From an uncultured Clostridia bacterium (GTDB lineage: Bacteria; Bacillota; Clostridia; Christensenellales; UBA3700), in NCBI GenBank assembly GCA_947175555.1, contig CAMWNK010000003.1, forward strand, positions 4,540 to 68,539: 64,000 nucleotides of DNA. The letters run 5' to 3'. This document shows, piece after piece, positions 10,102 through 45,636 of this stretch (positions are counted from its first letter, which is position 1; each line of letters starts with the position of its first letter). The notes beneath the pieces were generated by a model. That model was given only the letters and a program-made list of their open reading frames with translations, searched no databases and was not told where the DNA came from. A program made the translations under genes and the position numbers.

Positions 10102-10134
10102 AAAAAAGGCGGTCTCCATATCGAAAACCGCCCC
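10102..10134 (-). terminator. rho-independent terminator after the 4,477-aa gene
   Basis: The minus strand reads GGCGGT-loop-ACCGCC followed by TTTTTT (plus-strand stems at 10108-10113 and 10127-10132, A-tract at 10102-10107). Confidence 0.6.
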
Positions 10135-10159: not shown

Positions 10160-13100
10160 TTACCAAGTATACTCGGCGACCAATTCTATCTTGAAAGATT
10201 GATATGTGTACTCAATAGTCATCGACTGCAAGTGCATGGTAGCGCAATCGGCAACTGCCGTAATTGTAGCATTTCTGTAATTGCTTGCGGCGCTGTCGCC
10301 CTCCCAAAAACCTCTCGCGTCGATTATATCTCCTTTATACGTGCCTACGCTACCCTCAAATGTCGTCTCGGTCTCGTTGAAGTAATTAGCACTGAAGTTA
10401 AATCCCAGCGTTCCGTCAAACGACGGCACCACGCCGCTGATTACACCTTGCAGATGCTCGTTGACTGTAACTTTACCGTCCTTATAAGAATAAACAACAG
10501 TATTGCCGTCCGAGATTGTATACGATACATTGGGAGCAGCGCCGTTGAGCACAGCCGACGATGCCGCGGTAAGAATGGTATTGGAGTCATACGTCTCCTT
10601 ACATCCTACCATCACAAAGGTGAAAGCAATCACTATGCACACAACTGCAATCAGCACCGCTATAGTCTTACTCTTACGAGCCTTTACGCTCTTAACCTCT
10701 GCCACATCGCAAGCTCCTTCTCTTTTCTTTCTGCGACCTACAAGCATAACGCCCGCCACAGCAACTGCCGCTGCGCTAACAGTAACCGCCGTTCCGACCG
10801 CCGCGGCCGTATCAGCTCCGGATATAGACTTGCTTGCCATCCTATCCGCAGTAGAATTAGCGGATGCAACGACAGAGTTGAGCTTTGCGACATAAGACTC
10901 GTAAGACGACGTCGCAGCAGCTACCGAAGCATTGAACTCGGACGTCTTCTCGGCATCTGCGACACGGTTGACGTCGCTGAGCATCTTAGCGTATTCGGCA
11001 AGAGACGAAGCTCTGAAAGTGCTCTTCAATCTATCGGCTACCGTAGTAACTTTAGACGGTGCGAGCGTTGTCTTAACGCTTATGCTCTTCCACAGCTGCG
11101 AATCGCTGATATCGTTAGCGTAGTTGCTATCGTTGATTCTGAATATGATATTGTAGTCCTTATCATCGTCAAGTCCCTCGACGACGCTGCCCGAGAATAC
11201 GCTCCAAGTATTGCCGCCGTCTATCGAATACTCGTAAGCTCTCGTCATACCTGAGACAATCGCTATATCAACTCTCGTCGACCTTATACCCGACACGGAA
11301 ATCCTGAAATTGTAATCGCTGCTCTGCGCCACGGTAAGCGACGTAGTCAAGGAAGATCTTACGGTATCCGCGCCCGCAAGGGTTGCGTCATACTCGACTT
11401 CGACTCTGTAAGTGCCTACAGGCAATCCAGCAGTAGATGTAAATCTCAATGTCCTCGCCTCGGTACCTTGACCTACTATCCATACAAACTCTCTCGCACT
11501 TGCAATCAGCGCTATGCTACCTTGCTCGGTATATGCGGTAATCTTATTGATATGAACAGTCAAATCACCGTCGAGCTTTGCGCCGGGATCGAGCGAGGAA
11601 ACTCTCAAATCGATATCTTGAGTAATATTGTCTCCATACACGATAGAACCAACCGACTGAGGCATAGCCACGGATGCGCCTATATAGTAGGTGATAACAT
11701 AGTTGTTATCCGCATCCAAGAGATGTCCCTTGAAGTTATTATCACCTGTTACCGATACGGCGTGCGTACCCGTCTTGGTGTGAGGGGTAGTATTATTGTA
11801 GGTGTAATCAGTCCTTTCGGTAAGTATATTACCGTTGAAGGAAATCACCAATCCGCGCAATTCTATAGGCTCGCCGGTGTATGCGTAAGACTTGATATAA
11901 TCGACAGTCAAATTACCCGACAAATATGCCTGCTGCAAATCTGCCGCCTCGATAACAAAGTCATGCACGACAAACGAACCGCTGTAATTGCCGACGAACG
12001 TAACTACCGCGTCGAACTTGCCTGCGTTGACAGTGTCTGTACCGAAGTCGACAGTATAGTCGCTGCTTGCCACAAGCCTTCTGCTCTCGGATACCCAAAT
12101 ATCTATTGCAGGCGTCTGCGCCTTGCCGTTGTATGTAGCATAATCAAGAGTTACGGACGTGTTGTAAAGCGCGCCTCTGTCTACTGCTTTAACAGTAGAT
12201 ACGTTGCTGACGTCGAAGCGCTCTATCACATACTTATACTCGACGTAATTCTTATCGGCGTCGAGGTCGAAGCACCAGTTGGAGTACGCTGCGATTGTGA
12301 ACCTTACGGTGTATACGCCTGCGTCCTTGACCGTGCTTACGATATTGCCACCTTCATCCCTTACCTCGGTGATAAGGTCGGCGCTGGGAGCCTTACCGTA
12401 TATACCGTATATTGCGGTAAAGCCGAAGTCGCTGCTCCTCTTTTCCAAAGTATCGTACACCTTCGTGAATACGTGATCATCGTCGGTGTCATGATTATCG
12501 TCGAACCAAGTCGTGATCTTAAGATCGCCGCCTACGTCGTGATTTTTGGTAATTACTACGTTCATCACGTAATCCGCGCTTGCGCCGTTGACCTTGACAT
12601 CGTAGTTATTGCTGTTCATGACAAGCGAAATTCCGCTGTACGCACCGGGGAGCGTAGGCTCGACATTGGCGCCGAGATTAATGCTCCACATTGTATTTCT
12701 GTTACCGTTAACGACGTTTACATCGTTGGTTATATCTTTTACGTCAAAGTAATCTGCAAAGTTGAACGCCTTGCCTACATACTGCAACGTAAGCTCATGA
12801 AGCTCGGCATTATAACCCTCTCCGTCCTTGAAAGACAGCGCGTCTTTAAGCTGAACCTCGACGTCCGCCTTCGCAATATTGAGCGTAACGGCTATATCGA
12901 CAAACTCATCTGCATTGATAAACTCATAATTGGTCGTATCTCTGAGCGCCATGGAGAATGTCGCAGTTACGCTGCCCACGTCGGTAAGCGAGTAAGTCGC
13001 AACTGCGGGAGGCACGATAATGCTGTTGTACAGATTCTTATCGGCGGTGATAACTCCGTCCGCATCCTTGTTGAACGCACCGTCATAAGTCAACGTGATA

Positions 13101-19100: not shown

Positions 19101-22100
19101 GAATCCGCTATGTTATTGCCCTCGCTATCATACAAGGCGAAGGTCAAGACCTTAGGATTGACGGTAACATTGATGCTTGCGGAAGCTGCATTTCTGTTAA
19201 CCGTACCGGTATAGCTCACCTTCATGATATAGTTGCCTACCGACTGAGCCGAAGCAACCTCGTTACCGTTAAGGTCGGTGAATACCGTAGATACGAGATT
19301 GGCCTGCAAATCGGGAGTATTGACATTGACTCCGGAATTTTTACCCGTTACCGTTACCGTAACTACAGGCAAGATATTGGCGTTATACTCTTTAACGAAG
19401 TCTTTACCGCCGTTGATGACGATCTCCATATCTTCCTTCTTAATCTCGAAGGTAAGCCCCTGCTTATAGACAGACTCGTAATTATCCGTCTCGTCGAGAT
19501 AAAGAGTAACGTTATACTTACCTGCGGTCTCTACGCCGTTGACCTCGTGCGCGCCGTTATACTCGACGATGATTTTCTCAAAAAGCTCTTGAGCATCGCT
19601 GTCGTTTAGCGCGGTAATATTATCGCGAGTGAACGCAAACTTCTGCAAATCGTCATTATACGTAACGATCTGATCTACTTGCAAGTCAACGAATGCAATC
19701 GCCGCCTTGAGCACCTCTATACTGTCGACCTCGTTGCCGTTAACGTCAAGCAGCGCGTCAAAGACATAGGAGCCGTCGGTAGATACTTGCTCGCTGCTGC
19801 CGTCGGACTTGACAGCTTCATAGCTGCCGGTGAAAGATGCCGACAGATAATACTTGCCTACATTTTCTATATCGGCGCTTTGAGTAAGGTTGATATCCTT
19901 ATAAGAAAGCAATTGTATAGGCGTCTTGACATCGTCTGTAGGATAAGCCAAATCTTGACTTGCTATATGCGTATTAAACGCCCAAGCAGAGCCTTTATAT
20001 CTGTAGACGGTGCTTGTGTCGATATCGGTATGGAGATTGATATGCTTTGCCGCAATGTTATACTCCGTACGCATATTGGAATCGGGATATACGTAATTGC
20101 CGCTTTCCGAAGAAACGAGCACCCCGCCTATCGAGAAATCAACAAGGCTTACGGTGTGCTTACCTGCGGCTCTGGGAGGCGCAACGTATCCGATACCGTT
20201 GCTTGCCAAGTCGTATATCCACTTCTCGCTGGAGGCGTCTATGTTATCGCCGTACATCAATCCCGTAATCCTATAAGTAGGATTGCTATAACTGTCGCCG
20301 TACACCAATGAAGTAGGCATAGTTACCTGCGAGAGGGTGAGCGTAGCTTGATTGACGTACAAAGTACCCCTTGCCGCGCCCGACGTCGAGGGATTGAGAA
20401 CATCGTTGATTACGTTATAGTTGCCGCGCTGTGTTTCGCTCTCAAAAGTAATACCGCGCAGATATATAGGATAAGATCCTGCGTTAAGCCTTCCGCTGTA
20501 ATGAGCGTTGCCTGTACCGAATAGATATTTACCCTCCTCAATCATAGCGTCAAACAACATATTGACGCCGGAAGGCAATGCGGTTATATCCGTAGGATTG
20601 CCGTTGCGGTCGGTAATCTTATACGTATAGCCGGTAAACTCAGCCTGCGATGCAATGGTATCGCCGTAATTTACGACAATGGATCCGGGGGTAACCTGCA
20701 CGTTGACGGGATGGACGGTGAAGTCCTGTATCGCGTCTATGGTGTAATTGTTGGCAGACTCGCCTACAAGTCCTCTGACGCTGAGTCTATACGTAGCCGC
20801 ATCTACCGCTTGCGAGATAGATGTGCCGTTGGCATTGTAATAACCTATCTTGGTAGGATCTGCCTTAACGTCGTCGCCCGACAGAATACCGGTGATAGAG
20901 TATCTTGCTCTCGCGCTCGGATTGTCTGCCGAATACTGGAAGTTAACGCTATTGCCGTTGTAATTGATATCGGGAGTCTCGACATTGATACCGAGAGTCT
21001 TGGGCGTAACAGTATACTCAAACGAGGAATCTCCGTCGGGAGTCAACAACATATAATATGTAGTCGAACCTGAAACAATCCTCATTGCTATATAAGCGCC
21101 TGCCGACGTAACGTTAAACTTATATCTACCCGCATCCTTAGCGAGCTTTCTGCTCGACTCTGCCGTAGCATTATCGCTATCATCGACATTGGCGAACAAT
21201 CCCGAAGTAGAGATATACTTCTGAACAGATGTGTACATATTGGCAAAGTAAGCATGCCCGATAGTCTCTCTATTGGCATTCAAAGAGCTATGCCATGAAT
21301 ACGTCCTGCCATTGTAAGAAGATGAGAATACGTTGTTTCCGCTTGAGTTAAGAATGCTCGGACCGACATTGCCGATAGTTGCCCCATCGACAGGCAGATG
21401 CATAGTAACGCCGCTGTTGCCGTTGAATATCTGCTGGAAGTCCTGATTGTAGCTGTTGTTGCTTGCCATCTTAATCCTCAGGTCGGGATAATCGATAGCC
21501 TTGCCGTTATATTCCTTAGTAATACTTCCGCTGTCAAAAGAGTATGTGGCAGAATCGCCCTTGGATATATTGAGAACCAAGTTACGACCGTTTGCGTTGG
21601 TGCCGTCAAATCCACCGTAAGCCTTGAGCTTGACTCCGGAATTGGCATTCTGCACATATACGGGATCGTATACCGTATGACCGCTTGTTGCAGTATTAAA
21701 TACTGTGCCGTTCTTATTATTCCACGTAGCATCCCATATGATACCGTTGCCGCTTGCGGCAATCTCTATCATATAATTTGCATCTTGCGAAAAGCCTATA
21801 GACGTAATATCATCCGAGCATACCGTAAAGGGCGTAATGGTGGAGTCGTCTGTATCAAATGCAAGAGGCATGGTTATTTCTGTAGCCGCAGCATGGCTAC
21901 TATTGCTTGATACCGAGCCGTTGTCAAGATATGTAGGTCCTGTATATCCCGGAGCCCACTTATACTGAGTGCCGTTGCCGACAGCGTCATACTTATTGGT
22001 AGGCATACTGGAATCTTCTATACCGGTAAATAGATTGTTGGTCAAATAGATGTCTCTATATGTAAGGCTGAAATTAGCACTTGATACCATAGAGCCTCTC

Positions 22101-23593: not shown

Positions 23594-23699
23594 AATTTCC
23601 TCCCTGTGATATATCGCTATATCATCCTGCTTATCTGTCGCCTTTCCCCTGCGCCGCGACCGCGCCGTATCAGTCCGATAAATGCAAAAATCGGCATCT

Positions 23700-23750
23700 C
23701 TATACGGAGCTACCCGTATAGATTATAGCATACTTGTCTCTCATAAGAAA
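23700..23750 (-). promoter_or_regulatory. candidate promoter of the 4,477-aa gene with an 8-6-8 palindrome over the predicted TSS
   Basis: The minus strand reads TTTCTT (23750-23745), a 17-nt spacer, then extended -10 TGcTATAAT (23730-23722). It is immediately followed by the perfect inverted repeat CTATACGG-N6-CCGTATAG (23700-23721). Confidence 0.35.
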
Positions 23751-23776
23751 GCCCTTATTGAAAATTTCCTCATTTT

Positions 23777-23807
23777 TCCGCGGCGAAAAAGGCTTTTCCG
23801 CCGCGGA
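23777..23807 (-). other. GC-rich hairpin 10 nt downstream of the 7,246-aa gene stop, with no U-tract
   Basis: A 9-bp stem TCCGCGGCG / CGCCGCGGA. On the minus strand it is followed by AAAAATGAGG, so it is not a canonical intrinsic terminator. It may be a weak terminator or a processing/stability element. Confidence 0.35.
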
Positions 23808-23816
23808 TTTCATCAA

Positions 23817-35800: not shown

Positions 35801-38800
35801 GGTCGATTACCGCATCGTAACCGCCGAGCGCGCCATCGAGATTGAGCGCCTGCAAGATTGCCTGAATAGCATCAAGCGACAGCTTAATATTTATCTGATC
35901 TCTCGATATTCCCATGAGGAATAACTCGTTGACGCCAAGGTCGTTGATACCCGCTACGGTACTGATTGCCGCCTGCGAAACCTTGTATGTTACGCGACCG
36001 ATATAATCGTTAACAGCGCAAGCCGTCTCGCCCGATTTCTTATAAGGCGTAACGTCTATCACCTCGCCGCCGACGAGATTGTCAATCGCAACGGAGGTGT
36101 CTTCGGTATCGATATATTTCACTCCGTTGACACTTACCGTATAGTACTGAGCACCGCTTATACGGTCCCAAGCGAATATGGCTCTGCCGTTTTCGCCGTA
36201 CGATGTATATATGTCGAAAGCATTGGTATATCTACCCGTGCGTCCGCCCATCGCTACGTAGTTATCGTTTCCTTCAACGGTCTTCTTAACCATAGGAATG
36301 ATTTCTACGGTGTAGACATCCGTCAAATCCGCCTTATCGAGCGTGTAGGAGAACTTACCGTTGACTTCGCTATCGGCAAGCAGCATCGCTACCTTATTGC
36401 CGTTGACGTTGACGACGTAAGCGTCTGCTCCGTCAACTTTATTCCATACCAAGTTGGTCTCGGTATCGCTATACTCTGCATTGACAGCGAACTCACCGAA
36501 GATCATGCTGTCCAGTCCGCCTATCAACTTGTTAAGCACATAGTTGATAAAGCCTTGAATATTGAAGTTAGCGGTATAATATACAGGCAACTCTATACCC
36601 AAAAGCGTAAGCGAACTCAAATCAACGTACAGCTCCGAGCCCTTGATATATATGCCGAGTATTCTGTCTCCGCCGTGGAATACGATATTATCCTGTCCGT
36701 CCACAGCTCCGAATACGGCGTCGGAGTTCATAACCACTTCAAGCATAATAGCCGTATTATTGTGATTATCGTAATCGAATGCCGCCTTAGCTATGAGCGA
36801 AGCGTCAAGTCTCATATTGCCGCCGCTTATAATCAATTCAAAAGCGTTGGCGTCGGCAATATTTATACCGAATCCGGTGAGCAGATCGCCTATACCGAAT
36901 ACACCCTCGGGCAACTGCAACTTCACGTCAAGCTGCAAGCTCATGCCGCCGAGCACATCCAATACGGTCTGAGCCAACGTCTTACCGCTTGAGAAATCAA
37001 GCTCTACAGCAGTGCTCTGAGCGTGCTGTATCGCATCTGCAAGCGTAGTCGTTTCATCTATACCGTTCTCGGCAATGGAAAGTCCCAATCCTACGGTAAG
37101 CGCCTTGCCGTCATAATCGTAAATGTTAGCATTGAGCTCTGCCTTTCCGTTAATCAGATAGATAGCGCCGTCAACGCCCACTACGTCGAGGTGCACGCCC
37201 ATCAAGCTGTACAGCAAGGAATCGATTGTATCCGTGCCCGCCTCAAGCGCAATGGAAGAATTGTGCAATCTTACTATCTTAGCTACGCTCTTAATCAATT
37301 CCGCAATATCAAGCGAATTAGATTCAGCCGTCGCTGCAGGAGCAAGAGCGACATTGCTTGCCGCGCTCGCCGCCTTAGGCGCAATATTGATAATAGTATT
37401 CAAATCAAAATCAATACCCGACAGCAGCTTATTGAGCGTATCCGACAGTATATTCATTACGGCAGAATTGCTTACCTTGATTATGTTTACGTTGTGGAGC
37501 AATGCAGACAGATCCGCATACAAATCACCCGAATCGACGTAAAGCGCAATTATCTTATTGTTAACGTCGTTGCCGAGATAATTCTTGTATACAGAATCTA
37601 TACGTATCATTGCAGAAAGCGCGGACAAGTCGTCAACCTTGCCGTTGAGCGTGATAGTCAGCTCGAGACGATCGAGGTCGGATACGTCTATGTTAAACGC
37701 CTTTTGACTGTCTAATCCTTGACTTCCCGTAGCAAGCATACCTATCAACTGCGACAAAAGTCTTGATATATTGAACTTATCCGCATCGCTATGCGCGCTT
37801 ATGCTCAACTTAATCGTGCTATTGAGCACCTTATTGAGTATCGCATCGACTACTTTGCTTGTGCTGTCGGCGTATCTGCTATCCGCATTTTTAGCCATTG
37901 CAAGCATGTCTTGGCGCTCCTTATCGGCAGACTGCTCGGCATCTCCTTGCAACTTCACGCCGAGCGTGAGCGCAGCGTTGAATCCGATAACGGGCGTAGC
38001 CGCTCCATTGTGCTCTATCGCTATCTTAAGCAATCCGTTCTGCACTCCGGTAGTAGCGACTATATCCCAGTCGAGGTTGAGCGCGGTCAAGTCGATTAAG
38101 CCCATTTCGTTAAGCAGCGACATTACCGCCTTGATACCGATATTGAAAGTAATATCCTGACCGATGACGATACTGCCGTCGGTATTATTAGCCAATGCCA
38201 TGGCGGAATTATTCTGAGTTACGACTCCGCTGTTGTCATCGGTTACGGTATCGTCTGTGCCGATTACCTTATCAACGGCTTGCTTGATATCGCCGACAAT
38301 GCTCGACAGATAGGACATTACGTTGAAGTTATCCGCACGCAGTATCGGCAAGGTAAGTCCGAGTATATGTACCGCGGAAAGGTCTATATAGAGCTTGCCG
38401 CCCTTAATAATAAGGTAAATGCCATCGCCTTCCTTGATAATAACCTCGCGGTTGCTATCGGATACGTCATATCCTATAGTCAAATCCTTACCCGCAATAA
38501 TTCCAACTACGACAGAGCTGTTCTTCTCGTCGATTTGCTCTTGAGAATCAACCGTTACGGTCTTGATATCCGTAGCCAATTTAAGTTTAAGGTTGATATC
38601 CGTTGCGGTATCAAGCTGCCAGCGGAAACCTTCTGCGCCAAGAGCTTCGAATACGTCGTTAATCGCTCCGTCCGCCTTAACAACGGAAGTCAAGATTACT
38701 CCGAGCACATCCCAGAGGTTGACGTTGTTATTGCCGCTGAAGTTGACGTCCAACTCCAAGGACAAATCGAGTCCGTTGAGCAGATCGGCTATACTGCCTA

Positions 38801-41800
38801 CCATATTGCTCAAATCAATCGCAATTCCGTCAAACGAATTAACTCTGCCCGTGAGGTCGGTAGTAAGAGCGGTAAGCTCGGCATTAGTCATCGTATTGAT
38901 AGACAATCCCAACGACAGCGTAATAGCCTTGTCTGCATTATCCTTAAGGCTTACATTAATCTGAGCCTCTCCGTTGAATATATCGATGTCTCCGTCAAGT
39001 TCGATGTTGAGGGAGATGGAGAAGAATTGGTTGAGCAATCCTTTAATCATCTCGCTCGTAGCATACAGCTTAACTACGGAGTCGTTAAGAGCTACCATAT
39101 CGATAATAGCAGCTATCAAAGACGAGGTATCTATCCTCATACCCGCCTTGGCAGCATTATCGGATGCTCCGTTATCGGCATAAGCTGCTACGTTGCTTTG
39201 CTGACTGCCGATGCCGAGCAAGCCGTTGAGCGTCTCTTCTATATCGATTTCGATATTACCGATTAAGCCGTCGAGCATACTCTTGATATTGGCGGTAAGC
39301 GGGGTGCGGCTATCCGTAACTTTAATTACGCCTGCGCCTATTCCCGACAGGTCGAGATATACGTCCCCGTCTTTAACTACCAGAGCTATCAGCTCTCTGC
39401 CGATATAATTAAGCTGCAAAAGCATCGCTACGTTTTCGAAATCAGAATACGAGCCGCTTGTGGTCAGCTTAAGCTCAAGCAACTTATTACCGCTATTATT
39501 ATTGATAATAGTATCCAAGTTGAGCGAAGACAAATCTATCTTGTCCCCGATAAACATATTGAGTACGTCAATGATGTCGAAGTCCTGCTCCGCCGCCAAA
39601 TCGATATACAAGCTGAACGAGGTATTGAACAGCGAATCGAGCAATCCCGATATCAGCTTGCTGCCTGCGTTATCGGCGGAAGCAATGAATGCGGCATATT
39701 TATCACCGATATTGAGGTTCTTGACAGCCGCGCCGGAATCCATATACAGCTTAAGCGAAAGCTCTAAAGTAGAGTCGCTGCCGACGTATCCCTCGGGCTT
39801 AATCAAGTCGCCTACAACCTTAAGCAATATTCCGGTAACGCCGTCTATATTGCCTATCTCGCCGAATATGGTGAGGTCGAGGTCGGGCAAATCAATGTCG
39901 ATTTTATCGCCGAATACGAGTTTTATTATTGACAGCAACGCCTGAGATGTCATCATCAGACTCAGCTTATCCTTAGATATCATCAAGGATACGTCTTCGC
40001 CCTGAGCTCTCGCCATCTGCGCTTGACTGTCGTTGAGCTCGAAAGTAAGCTCGCCGTCGACTATCTTAGCGTAATAGATAGCGCTGGCATATGCGTTGCC
40101 CATAGTATCGAGTACGTTTAAGGTAACGTTGTCGCCGTCCTTCAATCCTGTTACGTCTATAGCAGCAGACGTCGTATTGCTTCCGAGTTTAACCTCTTCG
40201 GACGCGTCCGCTCCCATCCTATTAACTACATAGCTGTATTCCTCGGCGCCGATATAGCTGTTCCACTTGAGGTTAAGCACCGAAGTACCGCCTGTGGTTA
40301 CTACTGTGGAATTAGCAGTATCAATAACCAATCCGTTGGGATTGTACTGTCCGCCGATAAGCTGCTCCAACTTCAGTAGATAACCGTTAAGGAAACCGAA
40401 GAAATCAAAGCCTTCCGCCCTATACTTAGGCAGCGTCAAGCCGAGTATGCTGATACCCGACAAGTCTATTGACAATCCCTCGTAATTAAGGAATACGTCT
40501 ATTGAAGAATTGGGCTTGATAGCAACGTCATTGCCGAGCACAAGACCTTGAGGGAAACCTATGCTCAACATTATCTGCGGAGCCTTAAGCATACCCTGAG
40601 GGAGCTTCTTCTGCGCTTCTGTGCTCAGCTTCGTAACGTCGTCCAAAGCAATGGCAAGTTTCAGCTCAGCCTTGACAGACGTATCTTTCTCGAACGTCCA
40701 TACAGGTCCGGACTCAAGCATCTTGGAAATATTCTCGCCGAACATCGCAAACAGCTTGCTGAGGTTGTAACTACCCTTTACGAACTTGAGCTCAAACTCC
40801 GCGCCAAGCATTACACCTTCGTCAAAGATATCCCATATACCCTTAACGACGTTGCCGCCGTATGCAAAGTCTATCTCCGAATAGCCCGAATTGGGCGCGT
40901 TCATATCATCTACCTTTGCGGCAAGTTCTGCCGTATCGGTAGGAGAAATAGCTATGCCTGCGCTAATAGATATATTACCTGCATCCGAACTTACCGAATC
41001 ATAGATATTCAATACCAAATCCGCTGTACCGGTAAATATATTTACATCCTTAAGAGCTACGTCGAGTATCTCTATTCTGAAATTCTCGCCTACGAGATTG
41101 GCAAGTATGTCTCCGAATACCTTTCCGGTAATCTCAAGACCGATTATGCCGTTGTTGATAGTAAGTCCCGACAGCAGAGCATCTATTATGTTATAGCTGG
41201 TCCTCGATACTCCCTCGGTAATCTTATTGCCTTGCGCATCGTATGCAACTACAGTAATGGCATAGTTCTTGTACTCGTTATACCACTTGGTTGTAAGATT
41301 GCCGCCTGCGGACACTCTCGTCGTCCACTCTGCGGTAGCAGCGCCCGACAAGGAGAGAGATACTTCGTAATAGGCAGCTTTGTCCACGCTGCTCCAAGAT
41401 ACCGACTTGGCTACGCCGTTGATAGCGACGTCTATAGCCGCGGGACCTTGAGGCACATCGGACTCAACCTTAGTAACGACGAAAGTGAAGTTTTCTACCG
41501 TTATATCGGAGCTTGCGCCTACGCTCTCCTTAGGAATATATACTCTTACGTTATAAGATACGACGCCTGTTGCATCGGCAGTGAGCTTGAACACTCCGCC
41601 ATCTATTACGGCAGAAGTTACGTCTACTTCCTTGCTCTGTCCGTCTGCGCCTATCTGCTGCAATACATATCTATAATTGGCGTCGAATATGTTCCAAGAT
41701 ATATGCGTAGACTTGACGTCGTCGGTATACTCGGCTTTAGCATTGTAATCGAATGCGCTTGCCGTCGTAGTTGCGGATACGATTATCTTTTCGTTGCCGT

Positions 41801-44800
41801 CTTTAACCGTGCATACGTCGACTCTGTAATGGCTGTAGTTACTATCGCCATCAATGATAGTGAACCTGCCGTCGACGAAGATTGCAGCATCTTTATGCGT
41901 TACTCCCAATGCAATAGCATCGATGCGGTCAGCCGCGCCGCCCACGCCGGGCGTTACTCCATATACATTATAATATATATCGTTGGCGCTGCCGTATCTG
42001 TTCCACACTATCGTAGTGCCTATGTTATCGGACGTAACAGCCTTGAGCGATATGGATTTACTTACGTCGAGCAAGCTGTCGAGATTGAGCAATCCCTTAA
42101 GGCTTATGCTCTCGCTGAATCCGTCAAGCAAGTCCGTAAGCATACCCATAATGCCTGTATTGCTTACCTTATACTTGCCAAGTCCCAGTACGTTAAGGTC
42201 TATGTATGCGTTGTTTTGATCGAGATACAGGCTGAACAACACGTCCGCGCTGCCCGTCTCGCCGGCGATCAATTCAATGCCGAGTATAGGCTTATTGCTA
42301 TCGGACATAGCCAGCTTGATATTTAACGTAGCCTCGAGTGAATCCGTACCGATACTTCCGTCAAGCTCCAAGTCGGACAAACTCACGTTGACCTTTAAGG
42401 TGTCAAGCAAATAGTCAACGAGCTTAAGCACGTCGAGTTTTCCCTGCTTGAGCATTATTTTCATGGATATCTGAGTATCGAGCACAGCGTTAAGCAAGCC
42501 CTTGATTACGTAATCGTCGAGCTCTTGATTATTATAATCGCTGCCTATATCGTCTACTTTATCCTTTATTTCCTTCTTGCAACCTGCGATATTGACGTCT
42601 GCAAGGTCAATGCCCAAGGACAGCTTAAGATTGCTGTCTTTACCATCGACTGTAGAGAGCAGATTGGCCGTTACCTGCAAGGACAGCTGACCGTCTTTGT
42701 ATGCAATTTCTATCGGAATTTCGCCCTTTATATATTGATCTATATCGAATCCGAGATTTACGTTGAAACAGTTGAGCAACGTAAATACCGCTCCCACCGT
42801 TGCGGAGAGCTTAATCGCATCGCTGCCGAGATACAGAGCTATAGCGCCCGCATTGGATATAGCCTGCGAAGTAGAAAGCACGCCTGCGCTATCCTTGGTA
42901 ATCTCTGCAAGCGCGGCGGCAGCTTCCGCCTCGCCTTCGCCCGCGTTGGGATTACCCTTTATAGAGTTGATAACTCCGCTGAGGTCGAGACTCAAGTTGA
43001 GCTCGGGAAGCTGAGCAAGCAACGCCTCGATAGCAGAGCCTACGCCCATGTTATTGAGCTTGTAGATAGGCATCTCGAGGTTGAGTATCTTAAGGTTGGA
43101 CGCATCGAGATAGATAGCGTTCCTATATAAATATATACCTAATATAATACCTTCATCTATTAAAGCGGTTCCGCCGTTGGGATCTTCCAGATATACGGGC
43201 TCTCTTGCTACCAATTCGAGATAGAGAGCGCTGTCCATATCGGGATTGTTCTCGTCTATATACAGACCGAAGTCTAATCCAAGCGCAATCTTTGCGTTGG
43301 GATTGTCTATCTTAATCTTAATATCGCCCAGCGACAGTCCGAACATTGCCAGAAGCTGCGATATATTGTATTCTCCGCCGCTGAAAGACAAGTCGAGATT
43401 GATGCTGCCCTTAATGCCGCCGTTAAGCACGTTGTTGATGAGCTCGTTGATACTTGTCGTATATCCCGAGTCATCGCCTATGCACGAATCTATGTACGAC
43501 GCAAAATCTTGCTTTGCATCCGTGTCGCCGAACATAATAGGTTGCAGCAGCAAGAAATCGCTCAGACTCAGTCCGAGATTGATGCCGCCTATATTATGAT
43601 CTATACCTATAGATTCAAGGCCGTGTTTATTAACCTTAATAAAGAGTTTACCCTCGCCGATGTCGGGTATATTGATACCATCGGCAAGACCGGGGACAAA
43701 GCCGCCTATCGCCGTCAAAATGGAGTCGATAAGATTATTGTTGAGAGTAAGCGAAAGCTCGCCGCCGTTCGCCGAATTGGTAACGTTGACGTAGTCTCCC
43801 TCTATCTTCAATACCTTAAACAGCATGGAGATAAAGTTGCCCCATCCCGGAGAGATATATGTATTGCCCTCTTCGTCAACGGACAATGCCATTACGGAAT
43901 CGGACTGCGAAAGCAACTTGAGCGTGCTTTCCATACCCGACTTTTCTATCTTACCGTGATCGGTGCCGAACAGCTTATCTATTTCGCTTACCGCGCGCTG
44001 CTTGATTGCTCCGACAAGCTCGTTGAGATTAATGCCGCTTATCTTGATTCCCTTACCGCTCCACAGCTTGGCTATCTCGCCGTTGCCGCTTGCAGAAGGC
44101 AATTTATTAAGTATATTACCTATATTGATATACAGCGAGCCGTTCCTGTAATAGACGCCCAATATCGCATTCTCCGAGCCGTACTGACCTTTCTCAAACA
44201 GCTCTATTGCGATAAGATTGTTATCAACGTTAGGATCGGCCTGCTTGATGTCTATATCTATAATAGCATCGAGGCGGTAGCCGATATTGGCATCCAAAAG
44301 TATAAGACCTTGAGGAAGCGTACCGGGGACGAACGTATTGATCAGCGCGCCGACGTCTACGTTATTGCCCGAAGTGCTCAAGTCCAGATTGGCAGACAGC
44401 TTAATATTGCCCAAAGACCACGCTACGTAATCATTAATCTTATCGGGTACCAAAGAGAGATTGTCGCCGTCATATACGCCGTGCGTCAACTGCGCGGTAG
44501 TATATGTAAAGGTGGACTCTCCTACGGAATTATCTATGAGGTCGAGCTCGATATTGCCCGCAAGCTGACCTGCGGAGTTAATACCCGCTCTTACGATGAA
44601 GTCTACATCGGGGACGTTTTCCTTAAGCCAAGAAAGCAAAGGATTGAGATCTATGCTGCTAAGCAATCCGCCTACTACGCCGGATATGATAGGATTTTCC
44701 AACAGACCGGTAAGACCGTTGACCAACTTAAGGGGAGATATGGTGATGTCATAGTTGGTAATGCTTCCCGACGTGGTGGTATTGACAGACATAAACATGG

Positions 44801-45557
44801 AGAGAACGACGCTGTCTACAATACCGCTAATCATCGACTGCGAATTGAGTAAATCCTGTAAGAATGCAGGAAGTTTCTCGGCAACGCTGAGAAGATAATT
44901 CATGTTGAAATCTTCGATATATATGGGTTTAGCATCGGGATCCGAAGGATTAGTATCTATAAACAGGCCGCCGGCAGCTCCTTGGATATCCACAATATAT
45001 ATACCGAGCTTGGGCTTTCCGTCTTCAGTCAACTGGAAGCCCAAATCGTAATCAAGCGCGTTATCGCCGATTCCACGGCTCACGTTGGATACGAATTCAA
45101 GACCGTACTCCTTTCCGCCGGAAATACCCGATCCCTTGAGATGAGTATTGATATTATCTCCTTTGGATATACTGTTGAGTACAGTAAACAGCGGAGACAG
45201 TATGCCCGAGCTGCTACTGGAAGAACCACCTCTCCACTTAGCAGTCAGCTTGATAACTCCGCTGGCATTGGAAGGTACGGTATACTCATCGGTGTACGAC
45301 ATCAAAGACTCGTCGTCCCATCCGACTAACCTCTGCCCTCCGTTCTTAGGATTGTAATCCTTGAGATTGATGACGGTACCGGGGGTAACGTTGTTAAGCG
45401 TCATGACGCTGTTACCGCTCTCGAAAGTACCTGCGCCGGCATCAAAAACGACCGTTACGCCGGAGTCGCATGCAGACAGTATCAATGCACCGCTGAGCGC
45501 AACCAACATAACGAGTACCGTTACCAACGCTAAAAATTTGCCTTTCTTGCTTCCCAT
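23817..45557 (-). CDS. giant (7,246 aa) predicted lipoprotein: Sec/SPII signal, Listeria-Bacteroides (Flg_new)-like domain, seven ~0.6-1 k-aa super-repeats of an unassigned module interleaved with >=16 FN3-like domains, non-repeat C-terminal region with Ig-like domains
   Basis: - The ORF is uninterrupted over 21.7 kb, with GGGAGAG before the ATG.
- MGSKKGKFLALVTVLVMLVALSGALILSAC carries the lipobox LSAC.
- VVFDAGAGTF...GQRLVGWDDE...IKLTAKW is Flg_new-like.
- The LGIY...LYVDLS motif recurs 14 times.
- There are 16 W-x2-[VI]-x-GA-x-Y FN3-type signatures.
- The C-terminus has LPGNVTAHYANGTTESISVRWKS (Big-like).
- There is no C-terminal TM and no LPXTG. Confidence 0.9.
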   Translation of the reverse strand: MGSKKGKFLALVTVLVMLVALSGALILSACDSGVTVVFDAGAGTFESGNSVMTLNNVTPGTVINLKDYNPKNGGQRLVGWDDESLMSYTDEYTVPSNASGVIKLTAKWRGGSSSSSSGILSPLFTVLNSISKGDNINTHLKGSGISGGKEYGLEFVSNVSRGIGDNALDYDLGFQLTEDGKPKLGIYIVDIQGAAGGLFIDTNPSDPDAKPIYIEDFNMNYLLSVAEKLPAFLQDLLNSQSMISGIVDSVVLSMFMSVNTTTSGSITNYDITISPLKLVNGLTGLLENPIISGVVGGLLSSIDLNPLLSWLKENVPDVDFIVRAGINSAGQLAGNIELDLIDNSVGESTFTYTTAQLTHGVYDGDNLSLVPDKINDYVAWSLGNIKLSANLDLSTSGNNVDVGALINTFVPGTLPQGLILLDANIGYRLDAIIDIDIKQADPNVDNNLIAIELFEKGQYGSENAILGVYYRNGSLYINIGNILNKLPSASGNGEIAKLWSGKGIKISGINLNELVGAIKQRAVSEIDKLFGTDHGKIEKSGMESTLKLLSQSDSVMALSVDEEGNTYISPGWGNFISMLFKVLKIEGDYVNVTNSANGGELSLTLNNNLIDSILTAIGGFVPGLADGINIPDIGEGKLFIKVNKHGLESIGIDHNIGGINLGLSLSDFLLLQPIMFGDTDAKQDFASYIDSCIGDDSGYTTSINELINNVLNGGIKGSINLDLSFSGGEYNISQLLAMFGLSLGDIKIKIDNPNAKIALGLDFGLYIDENNPDMDSALYLELVAREPVYLEDPNGGTALIDEGIILGIYLYRNAIYLDASNLKILNLEMPIYKLNNMGVGSAIEALLAQLPELNLSLDLSGVINSIKGNPNAGEGEAEAAAALAEITKDSAGVLSTSQAISNAGAIALYLGSDAIKLSATVGAVFTLLNCFNVNLGFDIDQYIKGEIPIEIAYKDGQLSLQVTANLLSTVDGKDSNLKLSLGIDLADVNIAGCKKEIKDKVDDIGSDYNNQELDDYVIKGLLNAVLDTQISMKIMLKQGKLDVLKLVDYLLDTLKVNVSLSDLELDGSIGTDSLEATLNIKLAMSDSNKPILGIELIAGETGSADVLFSLYLDQNNAYIDLNVLGLGKYKVSNTGIMGMLTDLLDGFSESISLKGLLNLDSLLDVSKSISLKAVTSDNIGTTIVWNRYGSANDIYYNVYGVTPGVGGAADRIDAIALGVTHKDAAIFVDGRFTIIDGDSNYSHYRVDVCTVKDGNEKIIVSATTTASAFDYNAKAEYTDDVKSTHISWNIFDANYRYVLQQIGADGQSKEVDVTSAVIDGGVFKLTADATGVVSYNVRVYIPKESVGASSDITVENFTFVVTKVESDVPQGPAAIDVAINGVAKSVSWSSVDKAAYYEVSLSLSGAATAEWTTRVSAGGNLTTKWYNEYKNYAITVVAYDAQGNKITEGVSRTSYNIIDALLSGLTINNGIIGLEITGKVFGDILANLVGENFRIEILDVALKDVNIFTGTADLVLNIYDSVSSDAGNISISAGIAISPTDTAELAAKVDDMNAPNSGYSEIDFAYGGNVVKGIWDIFDEGVMLGAEFELKFVKGSYNLSKLFAMFGENISKMLESGPVWTFEKDTSVKAELKLAIALDDVTKLSTEAQKKLPQGMLKAPQIMLSIGFPQGLVLGNDVAIKPNSSIDVFLNYEGLSIDLSGISILGLTLPKYRAEGFDFFGFLNGYLLKLEQLIGGQYNPNGLVIDTANSTVVTTGGTSVLNLKWNSYIGAEEYSYVVNRMGADASEEVKLGSNTTSAAIDVTGLKDGDNVTLNVLDTMGNAYASAIYYAKIVDGELTFELNDSQAQMARAQGEDVSLMISKDKLSLMMTSQALLSIIKLVFGDKIDIDLPDLDLTIFGEIGNIDGVTGILLKVVGDLIKPEGYVGSDSTLELSLKLYMDSGAAVKNLNIGDKYAAFIASADNAGSKLISGLLDSLFNTSFSLYIDLAAEQDFDIIDVLNMFIGDKIDLSSLNLDTIINNNSGNKLLELKLTTSGSYSDFENVAMLLQLNYIGRELIALVVKDGDVYLDLSGIGAGVIKVTDSRTPLTANIKSMLDGLIGNIEIDIEETLNGLLGIGSQQSNVAAYADNGASDNAAKAGMRIDTSSLIAAIIDMVALNDSVVKLYATSEMIKGLLNQFFSISLNIELDGDIDIFNGEAQINVSLKDNADKAITLSLGLSINTMTNAELTALTTDLTGRVNSFDGIAIDLSNMVGSIADLLNGLDLSLELDVNFSGNNNVNLWDVLGVILTSVVKADGAINDVFEALGAEGFRWQLDTATDINLKLKLATDIKTVTVDSQEQIDEKNSSVVVGIIAGKDLTIGYDVSDSNREVIIKEGDGIYLIIKGGKLYIDLSAVHILGLTLPILRADNFNVMSYLSSIVGDIKQAVDKVIGTDDTVTDDNSGVVTQNNSAMALANNTDGSIVIGQDITFNIGIKAVMSLLNEMGLIDLTALNLDWDIVATTGVQNGLLKIAIEHNGAATPVIGFNAALTLGVKLQGDAEQSADKERQDMLAMAKNADSRYADSTSKVVDAILNKVLNSTIKLSISAHSDADKFNISRLLSQLIGMLATGSQGLDSQKAFNIDVSDLDRLELTITLNGKVDDLSALSAMIRIDSVYKNYLGNDVNNKIIALYVDSGDLYADLSALLHNVNIIKVSNSAVMNILSDTLNKLLSGIDFDLNTIINIAPKAASAASNVALAPAATAESNSLDIAELIKSVAKIVRLHNSSIALEAGTDTIDSLLYSLMGVHLDVVGVDGAIYLINGKAELNANIYDYDGKALTVGLGLSIAENGIDETTTLADAIQHAQSTAVELDFSSGKTLAQTVLDVLGGMSLQLDVKLQLPEGVFGIGDLLTGFGINIADANAFELIISGGNMRLDASLIAKAAFDYDNHNNTAIMLEVVMNSDAVFGAVDGQDNIVFHGGDRILGIYIKGSELYVDLSSLTLLGIELPVYYTANFNIQGFINYVLNKLIGGLDSMIFGEFAVNAEYSDTETNLVWNKVDGADAYVVNVNGNKVAMLLADSEVNGKFSYTLDKADLTDVYTVEIIPMVKKTVEGNDNYVAMGGRTGRYTNAFDIYTSYGENGRAIFAWDRISGAQYYTVSVNGVKYIDTEDTSVAIDNLVGGEVIDVTPYKKSGETACAVNDYIGRVTYKVSQAAISTVAGINDLGVNELFLMGISRDQINIKLSLDAIQAILQALNLDGALGGYDAVIDLTLKPNQDWLSLSFESNLGEAYGGTNASGEIALSVFDIYNGANADAFKQSLADDAVWNILAQKKDMAYSNIVDGLLDKMLNLSATLDIKVTGDTALNLRNVLNAVFAQIDQIKDMRITEDIMLELSGLDLQLALNIGIDLSSVDNTVIAIALNDMRGGKSNLLGIYLHQGKVIIDATGIALGRYAIEGAQLFQGLFDTLNNAIKGLRDATDMDGLLDMLYGLVDKTPAQSDETVSLDSSAEKGNLPAGTHSIAVRVSTDANAGTTTFSWDSVPTAMRYRLMLYSGYDLANKTNLIREAEFMPEGLDICNTIRGTSVTFNTEALNKIGLIKDSMSPFDGVLQSGYYYLVVEAVRKYGADSVEPVYNEDGLVINGGYTNFSVLKSILSMVKIKNDRISLTATAATINKLLAGTLGINFDWASVVLDIDLFDGIGNLDFTVSDGERSVIADNITLTKDTASVELGWDVVADADYYEIDITDINGKDKIDTVQVHDFDITVSGNRASYSVDATAYPWLLSKELRYRVTAIFDSVNTAVIGLTLTTGGDGRDKAVEAMKDNGILVEFGEFGDYTIAPEIPSINEINGASIQQFVEGLLSVIRLEASLDIFIARGSYNISSLINNLLEKLNLNVEGLDESGIVWTLTDDLRFTIELKLLFSLGVNAEDTKFVLELSSSGLSLNEADGTTIGVINAGTLLGLYYQDGKAFVDLSNITLLGIQMPCYTFDIDVHQVLTDMIDNLFKDFDFSILGKGLSVNVEGNADGNTYALWNNYSKSDEYKVEVFKPVYAADSMSWTSAGFVTVQAGATRADITSLVGTDRHYMVEVTALDATGAEIAKDSKVCGESAQERRVSLADDIDTLDMRHLIMLGISSDKLQVEVTTKAVASLLSSFLSGNSTIASITDILGLFDLRLVGEWQAKEALTLKLQGDLFGTDFTPVNVACNNVGYVIDDDAQGVTFTWDAIDAANGYELTIKNATGSTVATAKSDTNSAHVEFDSIFTQAVLAPNGGSWSVVGIIDNPLNVTLKLHTEKLLNPDDMNKVPEEIDEILSDIDIDKAKEEYGSKLIAGLLDKIYNLSLSIALDFSEVDGFSVSEVLSVMVGNLLLGSTGISVSELTDALDLRLSTDATTVALDIMLNVDKNSPADTNIVIQLSSVIGGNNKDVLFALYIYNNKLVVDMRAIGLRAYEIRNLEYIVSLQEELFGLIDGLIGDIEIDISKIIDGLLNPKTDSKTGNDDVAGDTPSIGDSVLGGDTMPAISVRVVNSYDNDGSRISTLKWGAVDGAVKYVLTMPADDGSETQVTLSANEYEFVSDAAVYGKPYNVKVEAYNADDVLIAVGNRGTNGVIASILNALSLHNSIIRLDITSEILDTLLSTVLKDISINTDPIDSLDANIDIFNGNAEAKINLVLKQGETGAVVNNLVLGATLGLGMSPKLYSIDSTTGISDPDTVIQKSLNAIGNVTVVDLGVGDPAGRIANAIFSALSTSSLAVDITVAFNAGTYDLAELIKSFGLDILGDTHLYWTFNQNTEITLTLELSARISPNAYNDSLLLLDIKAGKDIIFPAVNVGGKNYGEFRIDAGESIISVFGRSNSNGNSYIYLDLSGFSILGIPLPVLRAEYNFDRMIINEIYDLAAKITGQYKPEVSYEADDRGNMILSWEAREFGGEQIKYDFTVVNADNNAEIVSIKGSEFLNGNNVVDTSYLLTRDKVVNRMRVSITAYFDYTLSDGRPARRVVAESTSDIDLSAHADVTAHEAEDIIKDTQDKGLQVLDTVKLEYIGLNKTRASWLALEGVVAYEIYLVSTGTGARIPMSNAVETGKATVVGAGRVEGYDTLGINGDGIKPGTEISVEIDTTPLFTAAISAMGRYQTMFASGLSAPAPSIGNANSADDYYGYYIVVNCYGNVKEAEEPETPAVDSYALVARGAANSYGAINANFIPKVGASAGSGNYIISWDNFDGAVKYSVLPYYSRNNISSSGMSVDYIAVGKSSASAAGYTINDLLVNGNFVNIYNVDYSGTYNIELCAYDTYGNIIGYTVIANSIKANGNKLVPMAVIEIIAKADQLGIAVQLDAVAAILDAFGVKLGAFDLSALDIEAAVGLKTYVERVTTSGDIGGGYIDSIDVYGAHLKGMDIGAAYTVKVTHTNEGSLVGVKEYTLIADYSGKLDVSYVMNALGEYNFSVINASGVEVVNTTVRTLKRYSLDIVGDLMQNANTAGAVVNANETSGTVSATVSSGALSYTWSAIDNASNYTVRVDYFADLSVSGAPNATETKSATGTSVLSSLPLDAGWYLVTVTAGNGTSTGKFVQVMFTVDESGNLNNSVGKVLGQIGVTSDGRLIYWNAMSNAHTYGLDICERVNGTIVKSAVYDGLNGTVHSVTLNHAGSYDVIVRGYDVDGNMLPDIYSAHVEVGGKSDFNISASISYDDIIIGGGDSDYNRLSNIIDSKANSYFSGDYATTVRMLIFNYLQDVGLGLKLDLSATQTVINMADMINTVFNAINGTSPIGAPIRLDVKGIRDMGMTLNLEWHLDYTRNSTTQMVTGINAQGTTLKAELNYYEGNNTKTLLGFYLKDRSFYVALQGLGLFNIKMTSNRMINNLTGTLYTLLDNLSHTLDDTIDSALGVDAGEGINFGVLIKALLGEYAEIDLGSVIVGGATMDVDELQTMAKDESVQDMDIGYIVTKLLGVLSLENSSLLVNATSSVIDTIVADLLGVELGLDVDVSVLLGILSGDIAASLRIDNVTVNAELDLHINDGSDYSNLVIPSMNFIDLNVEQNSGTQLAMSLIASSGINLSIDLANASVESIAYYNYTADNAYTFGYPASLRISVEALNEDRTITENLNGSLQVQRGGLLVTLIGMDTAEYNTKGAGSTLPLAYIYISPDDSLTVKLAKGWFVINASAIGITVTVDLGDNLYASSMQSLIRGFVPDGTFPVTISVPNLGIMNTLGGLLDNIINMIIGDESGANTNPDDTTAGDDTSSGTGESVVDYGIKVYAYNSTNPVVEGSTFRIVHNAATNADGVAFDGYNLRVMRSDGYVLLDTTYPASATTSSGNYGYNVNFNWYEDYRIVVEGYMNKTGFDKVFGELDFWALLGGNRKGSNAATLPTGGAYPTAEAWTEDDFGITASLSGTGNFNLSVDFDTYYLNKLIDDVMDLIFGANTILDLSSMGLRHNYLAHTWWDRTSRSSTWLNTMDLGGNDLRLGMQYDPTSTLDSLAVQIVPLLADALELININIDVNVGPAIKVKLNGPAIREADDSLKWHDTMSNLNRIFMHLLPFAVWNTAKLNVSLVDGTIANISFDGEDLGLAVRDENGRVLTHEVQTFYGKYNSGQSRDQYYYDTGRTDDFTYSNLSAMGGVKKLTSNGSTKTSTVVRNGKSYTAYGYTVTYNAAGVAGSNTGGLQYSGATTNTAGTSGSRMNMNFTYVRTGSAIVNRSTQSGSGFNTGSDSSLWGKPNGSTFVVGQGDVAPFHTKIDIYNGSASVGSSSTTTDHTAGIVSWGGLPAYIEYDPLSMGAPSAAAPLIISRYFASGLTARYQQGSNFARGQITYAINGGTLNSTNLATALSSSADEITVVATATFGGSIGSKSLNIVIHRNRSTIVSIDKVQMHYFDSLPQYVVVTTSEGKRKKYDVTTDRNKAGDENKVLLTDYDPAAVSAAQGATINAKLTFADGTISNLLEIEYEDSTLSLENINELDLYSFNNIDDVVNAIDRIKVTYADGDAVISDNMVLGNGGSGSTMQIYSTKAGRWIALNSWANGVLDIKGDTIYIPASVSQNASDWGSNRLSQSTTIVINIATKLPEYITVRDGEADTIVVNPYEHYMSLVNGDDSLAALPGNVTAHYANGTTESISVRWKSTDGSYVRSNSIITGWNTMGAEGQLYVENDEVIYQKFHWVYGRDELSNKIINYRMESGRVVGMAFDLDGDGIYESATPDSTARRQLNAEVEFSGGYKMILPVAIDTIGNRLVGYIGYDVAAYRANSLNICDYDGYSFKQAFIITKDVRSLV
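26950..45100 (-). repeat. in-frame protein-level super-repeat region of the 7,246-aa gene (diverged, not identical at DNA level)
   Basis: Flavour-a motif copies lie at about 44941-45020, 43081-43160, 40441-40500, 38335-38425, 36600-36680, 33640-33735 and 30960-31035. Flavour-b copies lie at about 44101-44175, 42181-42245, 39320-39400, 37470-37560, 35235-35325, 32245-32330 and 28050-28135. The two flavours alternate strictly. Confidence 0.7.
45468..45557 (-). other. lipoprotein signal peptide of the 7,246-aa protein (Cys30 lipidation site)
   Basis: K-rich n-region, hydrophobic core LALVTVLVMLVALSGALI and lipobox L-S-A-C, with the Cys codon at 45468-45470. Confidence 0.75.
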
Positions 45558-45607: not shown

Positions 45608-45636
45608 ATTATAATAATATACACGCGCATTGTCAA
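45608..45636 (-). promoter_or_regulatory. consensus sigma-A promoter of the 7,246-aa gene
   Basis: The minus strand reads TTGACA (45636-45631), a 17-nt spacer, then TATAAT (45613-45608). The predicted 5' UTR is about 45 nt and ends in GGGAGAG-N6-ATG. Confidence 0.55.

Follow-up and report, generated by a model that had tools for sequence, protein, structure and literature searches.

Introduction

The nearest organisational analogues of the locus described here are the giant membrane-anchored surface proteins of the Ebh/Mrp type from Staphylococcus aureus, together with the pair Gli349/Gli521. The latter are gliding proteins of Mycoplasma mobile; their genes are adjacent, both products are giant surface proteins anchored by transmembrane (TM) segments, and they form one joint surface machine. 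The locus itself is a tandem of two giant genes, here called A and B, in a stretch of 64,000 nucleotides (nt) from an uncultured Clostridia bacterium (GenBank assembly GCA_947175555.1, contig CAMWNK010000003.1, positions 4,540 to 68,539 of the forward strand), to which we refer as the window. We consider it fairly probable that A and B form a conserved, probably co-transcribed cassette for two Sec-exported, membrane-tethered giants that act as a long surface structure of the fibre or adhesin type. Below, we present the integrity and conservation of the pair, the repeated module of protein A and the layout of protein B, and then weigh this interpretation against its alternatives.

Two intact giant genes

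Gene A, the upstream member of the pair, occupies positions 23817..45557 and encodes 7,246 amino acids (aa); gene B follows at 10160..23593 and encodes 4,477 aa. Both lie on the minus strand, as do all features of A and B given below, and both start with ATG and run uninterrupted. The gap between them is 223 nt, and together they fill 54.96% of the window. An earlier reading of this DNA, made from the letters alone (the sequence-only reading), had described two uninterrupted same-strand giant open reading frames (ORFs), 223 nt apart and covering 55% of the window, and our gene calls reproduced its coordinates exactly. The computed masses and isoelectric points (pI) are 774 kDa and pI 4.3 for A, and 487 kDa and pI 4.5 for B.

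ORFs of this size could be artefacts of assembly or gene calling, be it a chimeric contig of a metagenome-assembled genome (MAG), collapsed repeats or fused genes. The window does come from a metagenome-type assembly, and on a low-coverage ENA contig the B gene is in pieces. The sole exact match, MAG contig JAIDXL010000061.1 at NCBI (GCA_029058825.1), holds the exact B sequence but shows 100% identity to the window along 17.4 kb and therefore does not count as independent evidence. Several observations nevertheless argue strongly against an artefact. No DNA tandem repeats were found in the region of 10-46 kb, and self-BLAST detected no internal repeats in either protein, so that repeat collapse is not a concern. 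Protein A is collinear over residues 1-7235, at ~30-33% identity, with a 7,116-aa orthologue (P0002), whose 90% cluster comprises 30 members; those of full length measure 7,104-7,128 aa, and one of them sits on a contig of ~1 Mb. Likewise, B is collinear with its orthologues across >3,000 aa, and the ratio of nonsynonymous to synonymous substitution rates (dN/dS) at its C terminus is 0.08 against a relative of 79% identity. On the strength of the repeat-free DNA, the collinear orthologues of both proteins and this dN/dS we rejected misassembly, to which we give next to no credence, and regard A and B as genuine giant genes.

Conservation of the pair

The sequence-only reading had proposed that the two proteins work together and that related genomes be surveyed for the pair and its order. 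A scan of GTDB species genomes with the tip region of A as the query returned four loci at 32-33% identity, located in two uncultured Clostridia MAGs, one uncultured Christensenellaceae MAG and Candidatus Alloclostridium intestinigallinarum. Each of these A-like ORFs has a second giant open frame 70-85 nt downstream, with a minimum length of 3,295 aa in three loci and of 1,890 aa in the remaining one. These downstream frames are collinear homologues of B with 24-28% identity, over >3,000 aa in the loci that reach that far. A metagenome scan starting from the head of B added one locus, which carries an A-like gene directly upstream, so that pair and gene order are kept in five orthologous loci.

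The same arrangement extends to smaller proteins that share the repeated module of A described in the next section. All eight smaller module lipoproteins examined (1,953-4,300 aa) are followed by a large protein encoded on the same strand, at a distance of -4 to +90 nt; in one of them, L016, the two genes overlap by 4 nt. Each of the eight partners has a basic N-terminal TM anchor, most feature a DGKVD-type motif and MBG-like repeats as found in B, and seven of the seven complete partners end in a C-terminal TM segment with a KKRKK-type tail immediately before the stop codon, the eighth running off its contig. Adjacency and order kept in five orthologous loci and in 8/8 smaller members strongly support the view that A and B function together, and we conclude that the A-B cassette is conserved across deep divergence.

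The lengths of the two partners also vary together. Lipoproteins of 7,246 (window), 4,300, 3,758, 3,500, 3,383, 2,605, 2,320 and 1,953 aa are accompanied by partners of 4,477, 2,384, 2,254, 2,042, 3,064, 1,890, 1,681 and 1,501 aa, respectively (Pearson r = 0.93, p = 0.001; Spearman rho 0.86; n = 8), a co-variation that is only suggestive because the loci are related to one another.

Transcription signals around the two genes suggest that A and B are probably co-transcribed. A perfect sigma-70-type promoter was found ahead of A (TTGACA-17-TATAAT, 12/12; 45608..45636), and the ribosome-binding site GGGAGAG stands 8 nt before its ATG; a good ribosome-binding site, read by eye, also precedes B. 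The scanner reported no terminator in the A-B spacer. Directly 3' of the stop codon of A, inspection by eye found a GC-rich 8-bp hairpin (CCGCGGCG...CGCCGCGG; 23778..23806) that lacks a T tract and is not a canonical terminator. The spacer also holds an extended -10-like element, TGcTATAAT (23722..23730), read by eye and not reported by the scanner, which could be a candidate internal promoter for B. Downstream of B, a terminator-like hairpin with six T residues (GGGGCGGT...ACCGCC + T6; 10102..10134) was likewise read by eye, the scanner having missed it because of its long loop. These elements agree with the earlier description of promoter-like elements ahead of both genes and of a terminator after the second gene only.

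One could also picture A and B as two independent giant adhesins that happen to be neighbours and have no functional partnership. The two proteins indeed share no sequence similarity by BLAST, their genes are separated by a promoter-like element and a hairpin, and large surface proteins are numerous in gut Firmicutes, one of them being a BspA-like leucine-rich repeat (LRR) protein in this very window. Against such independence speak the adjacency and order, which are kept at only 25-33% identity and in all eight smaller members, the very short or overlapping spacers of the relatives, and the co-varying lengths of the partners. We therefore consider chance neighbourhood decidedly unlikely and retain the interpretation of A and B as a functional pair.

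The loci of the smaller family members show some further features. In L011 (23622-27818) and L014 (26662-30503), the first B-like gene is followed by another that likewise encodes the N-terminal TM segment and MBG-like repeats, from which it appears that the partner gene can be duplicated in tandem. Small lipoproteins of 334-367 aa are encoded after the B-like gene in L010 (30288-31391) and L015 (22025-23029 and 23174-24196). They align with each other over their whole length, and no similarity between them and either the B C-terminal domain or the A modules could be detected; they may constitute a third component. An OmpR-type response regulator is located directly upstream of the pair in 5/8 of the smaller-family loci (L011, L013, L014, L015 and L016); in three of the five it is accompanied by an adjacent histidine kinase. 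Among themselves, these regulators share 37-57% identity. The regulator and kinase found in the window (5036-7485) were considered as orthologues of these two-component systems and rejected, at 22-33% identity. In L010, a sigma-70 family factor and an RsgI_M anti-sigma-like protein are encoded upstream of the cassette (4814-7710), a pairing that recalls the SigI/RsgI-type sensing of extracellular polysaccharide.

Protein A and its module family

Protein A begins with a lipoprotein signal of 30 residues (MGSKKGKFLALVTVLVMLVALSGALILSAC, followed by D; 45468..45557). Its layout, MGSKKGK-FLALVTVLVMLVALSGALI-LSAC, combines a basic n-region, a hydrophobic h-region and a lipobox of the form [LVI][ASTVI][GAS]C, in line with the signal peptidase II lipoprotein signal that had been read in the upstream protein. 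The signal is followed by a Listeria-Bacteroides repeat-like (Flg_new) domain (aa 35-107; 45237..45455), which covers profile positions 2-65 of 65 with an E value of 0.014, below the Pfam threshold.

Most of the remaining protein is taken up by a repeated module of ~300 aa. Its hallmark, LLGIYxxxGxLYxDLSxxxLLGIxLPxY, was spotted by reading the sequence of A, and hidden Markov models (HMMs) seeded on this motif and iterated revealed 13 divergent copies between aa 215 and 5872 (27942..44915), corresponding to 57% of the protein. The copies span aa 215-522, 532-870, 864-1170, 1410-1743, 1773-2120, 2116-2439, 2436-2730, 2726-3026, 3175-3474, 3583-4001, 4258-4479, 4537-4886 and 5564-5872. Their identity to the reference copy is 15-26%, and they match the iterated HMM with E values of 1e-52 to 1e-86; to BLAST these repeats are invisible, and they emerged only with the motif-seeded HMMs. 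Short inserts between the modules look like immunoglobulin (Ig) or FN3 domains, none of them at the Pfam threshold.

The last ~1,370 aa (5873-7246; 23820..27941) form a non-module C-terminal region that is conserved in many members of the family. This region contains a partial match to the Ig-like Big_4 family (aa 7072-7097, 26 of 59 profile positions; 24267..24344), which is the only above-threshold Pfam family in A. The NCBIfam search of A returned no match, and PDB sequence searches of A and B gave nothing at E <= 0.1.

Membership in the module family was defined as a significant match, the LYxDLS...LLGIxLPxY motif included, to the profile of the 13 modules of A. An exhaustive comparison of this profile with 1.84 billion representative proteins yielded 68 matches at E <= 1e-3, 38 of them at E <= 1e-30; a word-indexed homologue search with shorter queries gave only 1-2 close fragments. 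The relatives are named "hypothetical protein" at NCBI. Complete carriers are almost all 2,000-7,900 aa long and contain 2-15 module stretches, and nearly all full-length proteins of the family start with a lipoprotein signal. From these lipobox starts, the variable module counts and the conserved C-terminal region we derive a family layout, in which a lipobox is followed by a variable number of modules and then by a conserved tip region.

The module itself was modelled with AlphaFold2 from an alignment of 48 sequences, reaching a mean predicted local distance difference test (pLDDT) score of 74.7 and values >85 in its C-terminal half; an earlier model from 13 sequences had reached 53. The predicted alpha/beta fold has long antiparallel strands and closes with a helix of ~22 residues. 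In Foldseek searches of the better model against PDB and BFVD, no match was found at E <= 0.001, with TM-scores of ~0.1; sequence searches of Pfam, NCBIfam and PDB did not recognise the module either, and literature searches found no description of its family. As judged from these profile and structure comparisons, the ~300-aa module defines a new, rare but coherent family of giant lipoproteins.

Protein B, from signal anchor to C-terminal domain

Protein B starts with a basic stretch, MSKSRRY, followed by a hydrophobic segment of 22 residues (~aa 8-29; 23507..23572) that is predicted to span the membrane. This segment is far better conserved among the orthologues than the rest of the protein (~25% identity elsewhere), and no AxA cleavage site lies nearby, which together point to an uncleaved signal anchor; a signal anchor had also been read from the letters. 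It is followed by a head region (aa ~60-860; 21014..23416), in which a DGKVD motif is conserved and GGxVG repeats resemble the GLUG type by eye only; no Pfam family matches the head.

The long middle part of B (12209..21013) harbours at least 15 Ig repeats of the MBG/YDG-like type, each of ~95 aa and with other segments interspersed. They carry the signature ...AGxYxV...NY... and were found with an HMM seeded on one MBG_2-like segment. This HMM identified 15 repeats in B and 7 in the partner protein of locus L010, subject to the drift to which iterated HMMs are prone. In Pfam, the L010 partner hits MBG_2 and MBG_3 at E <= 1e-5, and the orthologues of B match MBG_3, MBG_2 and MBG at E ~1e-4, below the cutoff. 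For single repeats of B, the best values were E 0.0037 for YDG (17.9 bits, cutoff 25), 0.016 for MBG and 0.048 for MBG_2. Protein B gave no Pfam hit either as a whole (E <= 0.01) or in tiles (E <= 5), matched no NCBIfam family and did not reach the gathering threshold of any MBG-type model (PF17883, PF18676, PF18887, PF18657). Given these sub-threshold scores for single repeats, we call the repeats MBG-like and do not count them as members of the family.

Towards the C terminus, an Ala/Ser/Lys-rich stalk (aa ~4170-4255; 10829..11086), which looks helical by eye and has the same layout in the partner proteins, leads to a predicted C-terminal TM anchor (aa 4263-4285; 10739..10807) followed by the basic sequence RRKKREG. 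The partner proteins at other loci end at the equivalent of this anchor. B continues with a basic loop (RRKKREG...KARKSK) and a second TM segment that ends in the lipobox-like sequence VMVGC with Cys4331 (codons 4286-4331; 10601..10738), and then with an extra C-terminal domain of 146 aa (10163..10600). This C-terminal layout is kept in frame in P0071 and P0072, relatives at 79% and 51% identity, whose lipoboxes read LAGC and LTGC. The 146-aa domain was found only in the two close relatives recovered, the C termini of distant B orthologues not having been recovered, and its dN/dS of 0.04 indicates strong purifying selection. Its derivation from a fused copy of the small lipoproteins encoded downstream of the cassette in L010 and L015 was considered and dropped, as no homology was detectable.

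By the positive-inside rule, the RRKKREG loop would be cytoplasmic and the final 146-aa domain would lie outside the membrane. It is conceivable that a separate small lipoprotein arises from B, either through cleavage by Lsp at the internal lipobox or from an internal start, for which an in-frame GTG at codon 4297, with GAAGGAG 8 nt ahead of it, is a candidate. Behind this GTG comes a lipoprotein-like signal (KARKSK, hydrophobic stretch, VMVGC), and the relatives at 79% and 51% identity keep the arrangement. If used, the internal lipobox would represent an unusual way to make a lipoprotein.

Other routes of surface display can be set aside. The last 400 aa of A contain no LPXTG motif, and those of B no LPXTG-like motif, only a hydrophobic stretch and a basic tail; Pfam and NCBIfam searches of both proteins found no RTX, autotransporter barrel, WXG/LXG, SLH or CW_binding family, and no sortase, other secretion-system or glycosylation gene lies in the window. 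Both proteins were hence rejected as substrates of sortase or of type I, type V or type VII secretion systems, and the motif check and Pfam agree with the earlier observation that neither shows LPXTG, SLH or choline-binding elements or hallmarks of these systems.

A proposed membrane-tethered surface structure

How the two proteins might be displayed can be sketched from these features. Protein A would be exported via Sec, lipidated through Lgt/Lsp and anchored by its lipid at Cys30, from where it would project an acidic chain of 13 alpha/beta modules of ~300 aa, capped by the conserved ~1,370-aa tip with its Ig-like (Big_4) match. Protein B, too, would be exported via Sec and would be inserted by its N-terminal signal anchor; it would expose the head region, the MBG-like repeats, of which there are at least 15, and the helical stalk, and would be fixed at its C terminus by the TM helix with its basic cytoplasmic tail. 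In this lineage, the second TM segment with its terminal lipobox would return the 146-aa domain to the outside. The two proteins, possibly in physical contact, would then jointly form a long and acidic surface structure, tethered to the membrane, in an uncultured gut Clostridia lineage whose relatives carry the labels Christensenellaceae, Clostridia bacterium and Ca. Alloclostridium.

This proposal retains the core of the sequence-only reading, namely the pairing and the membrane tethering, the latter being supported by the lipobox in A and the TM segments at both ends of B. Two of its elements had to be given up. It had stated that the giants come without anchoring partners, which is wrong for B, whose C-terminal TM anchor it had missed; and it had held that domain families could be named for the smaller protein, in which we found only sub-threshold MBG/YDG-like signals. 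The Pfam searches of A and B, as whole proteins and as tiles, added only the partial Big_4 match.

By analogy, we prefer a role in adhesion or aggregation, since the order of signal, head, Ig-like stalk and anchor is that of Gram-positive adhesins. Several points weigh against this interpretation. Pfam and NCBIfam revealed no recognised domain for adhesion, catalysis or binding in A or B, so that the term adhesin is an argument from architectural analogy. The N-terminal TM segment of B, if uncleaved, would mean anchoring at both ends, which does not fit a simple adhesin with its head at the distal tip. The extended -10 element and the hairpin in the 223-nt spacer permit separate transcription of B. 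Without the window pair, the length correlation falls to r = 0.69 with p = 0.09, and its loci, being phylogenetically related, are not independent points. Finally, the model of the module is only moderately confident overall (pLDDT 74.7, with 45-70 in the N-terminal half).

The double anchoring of B and the matched lengths leave room for a different function, in which the giants serve as an envelope scaffold or spacer that spans or organises the wall or an outer layer and sets its thickness. Ebh of Staphylococcus has reportedly been proposed to set the thickness or organisation of the envelope in such a manner. Length co-variation would suit a ruler, A is held by a lipid where B is held by TM segments at both ends, both proteins are strongly acidic (pI 4.3-4.5), and neither has a recognisable ligand-binding domain. 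However, with its 7,246 aa A probably exceeds the thickness of a monoderm wall by far, and the sequence contains nothing that would separate spacing from adhesion. All in all, we regard a spacer as rather unlikely, if worth serious consideration.

It is also possible to imagine that the cassette encodes an unrecognised, length-matched two-protein envelope machine built on a new fold, which would serve surface motility, cell-cell junctions or an exoskeleton-like layer, would be organised like Gli349/Gli521 and not as a passive adhesin, and in which B would also release a third, lipid-anchored subunit via its internal lipobox or start. We consider this speculative and unlikely.

Whichever role applies, ~1.26 MDa of protein from what is probably one operon escapes current annotation, as the body of neither protein is matched by Pfam, NCBIfam, solved structures or viral predicted structures. 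The fibre or adhesin that we favour would bear on how the uncultured and host-associated relatives of Christensenellaceae among the Clostridia construct their surface and how they attach or aggregate, and it raises the question of how the Sec/Lgt/Lsp pathway handles a lipoprotein of 7,000 residues.

Genomic neighbourhood

Downstream of the pair lie a ComFC-like gene, a GH13 gene and genes for a response regulator and a histidine kinase; upstream, ~1.1 kb of AT-rich non-coding DNA and a 74-aa membrane ORF are followed by a MarR gene and two ABC exporter genes. This matches the flanks as first described, with ComFC-like and GH13 genes on one side and a non-coding stretch, MarR and two ABC genes on the other. 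The ComFC-like (9267-10064) and GH13 (7610-9286) genes overlap by 20 nt (9267-9286) and are on the same strand as the giant genes, and the order of ComFC-like, GH13 and response-regulator genes also follows B in a related ENA contig, L006. Upstream of the A promoter, the AT-rich DNA of 45640-47020, which has no convincing ORF or Rfam match, could be a regulatory or decayed region; the 74-aa ORF, with two TM segments, is on the plus strand (46754-46978) and has its own terminator (46999-47017). Further away, a plus-strand gene (2698-3999) encodes a protein of 433 aa with two C-terminal DUF1508 repeats and a weak histone H1-like match across its central part; the gene lies in a region of strong AT skew (0.24).

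On the far side of the ABC genes, a tyrosine integrase is encoded on the minus strand (51875-52840), at the start of a stretch with a guanine-plus-cytosine (GC) content of 0.36-0.43 that extends to 61767 and ends near a tRNA (61695-61767). The stretch has the appearance of a genomic island and also encodes a BspA-type LRR_5 surface protein (54576-56393) as well as a TetR regulator and a flavin mononucleotide (FMN) reductase (57402-58723).

With an integrase and a low-GC stretch only ~6 kb from A, one may ask whether the pair is itself part of a mobile element, such as a prophage, an integrative and conjugative element or a defence island, or else a polymorphic toxin. The GC content of A and B (0.46-0.52), however, is close to that of the housekeeping flanks and unlike that of the low-GC regions at 46-48 kb and 52-62 kb, which suggests a native origin of the pair, and the MarR and ABC genes stand between the pair and the integrase. 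Moreover, Pfam and NCBIfam searches of A and B found no toxin, Rhs, phage or defence family, a Foldseek search of the module against viral structures found nothing, and in other genomes the contexts are housekeeping genes that vary by locus. An origin of the pair from a mobile element or toxin was rejected on the grounds of GC content, intervening genes, missing families and housekeeping contexts elsewhere, and we hold it to be very improbable.

Comparison with known systems

Like the Ebh/Mrp-type proteins, A and B are Gram-positive surface proteins of the megadalton class, made of many repeats and apparently exported via Sec. B in particular shares with Ebh a C-terminal TM segment with a basic cytoplasmic tail in place of LPXTG (aa 4263-4285, RRKKREG), as do the complete partners at other loci. 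By Pfam, B has none of the FIVAR/GA repeats and no YSIRK signal of the Ebh type; it differs from Ebh in being composed of beta-rich, MBG-like repeats and in being always paired with a giant lipoprotein.

For the repeats of B, the nearest analogues would be the MBG/YDG adhesins of Firmicutes and Fusobacteria, with which they share a length of ~90-100 aa and the signature ...YG/YNG...AGxYxV...NY.... In contrast to these adhesins, B stays below the Pfam gathering score and has TM helices at both ends where they have LPXTG or an autotransporter barrel.

Gli349/Gli521 resemble the pair in being encoded by adjacent genes and in being membrane-anchored surface proteins of several thousand residues with few recognisable domains. 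The NCBIfam glide_Gli349 model (3,169 positions) matches neither A nor B, its sole hit being a trivial, partial one to the unrelated LRR protein at 54576-56393; no gliding motor genes (p42/F1-like ATPase) are present near the pair in the window, and, unlike the mycoplasma, the host here belongs to a walled Clostridia lineage.

With ordinary lipoproteins of the Lgt/Lsp pathway, A shares the basic n-region, the h-region and the lipobox. Ordinary lipoproteins are far smaller than the members of the A family, whose body, unlike theirs, consists of a module that has no match in Pfam, NCBIfam, PDB or BFVD. Beyond a shared style of anchoring, these sequence comparisons place A and B in neither the Ebh nor the Gli349/Gli521 family, and at the Pfam threshold B does not count as an MBG protein. 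Giant membrane-tethered surface proteins are already known as a kind, and what this locus adds to them is the ~300-aa module and the obligate two-gene architecture.

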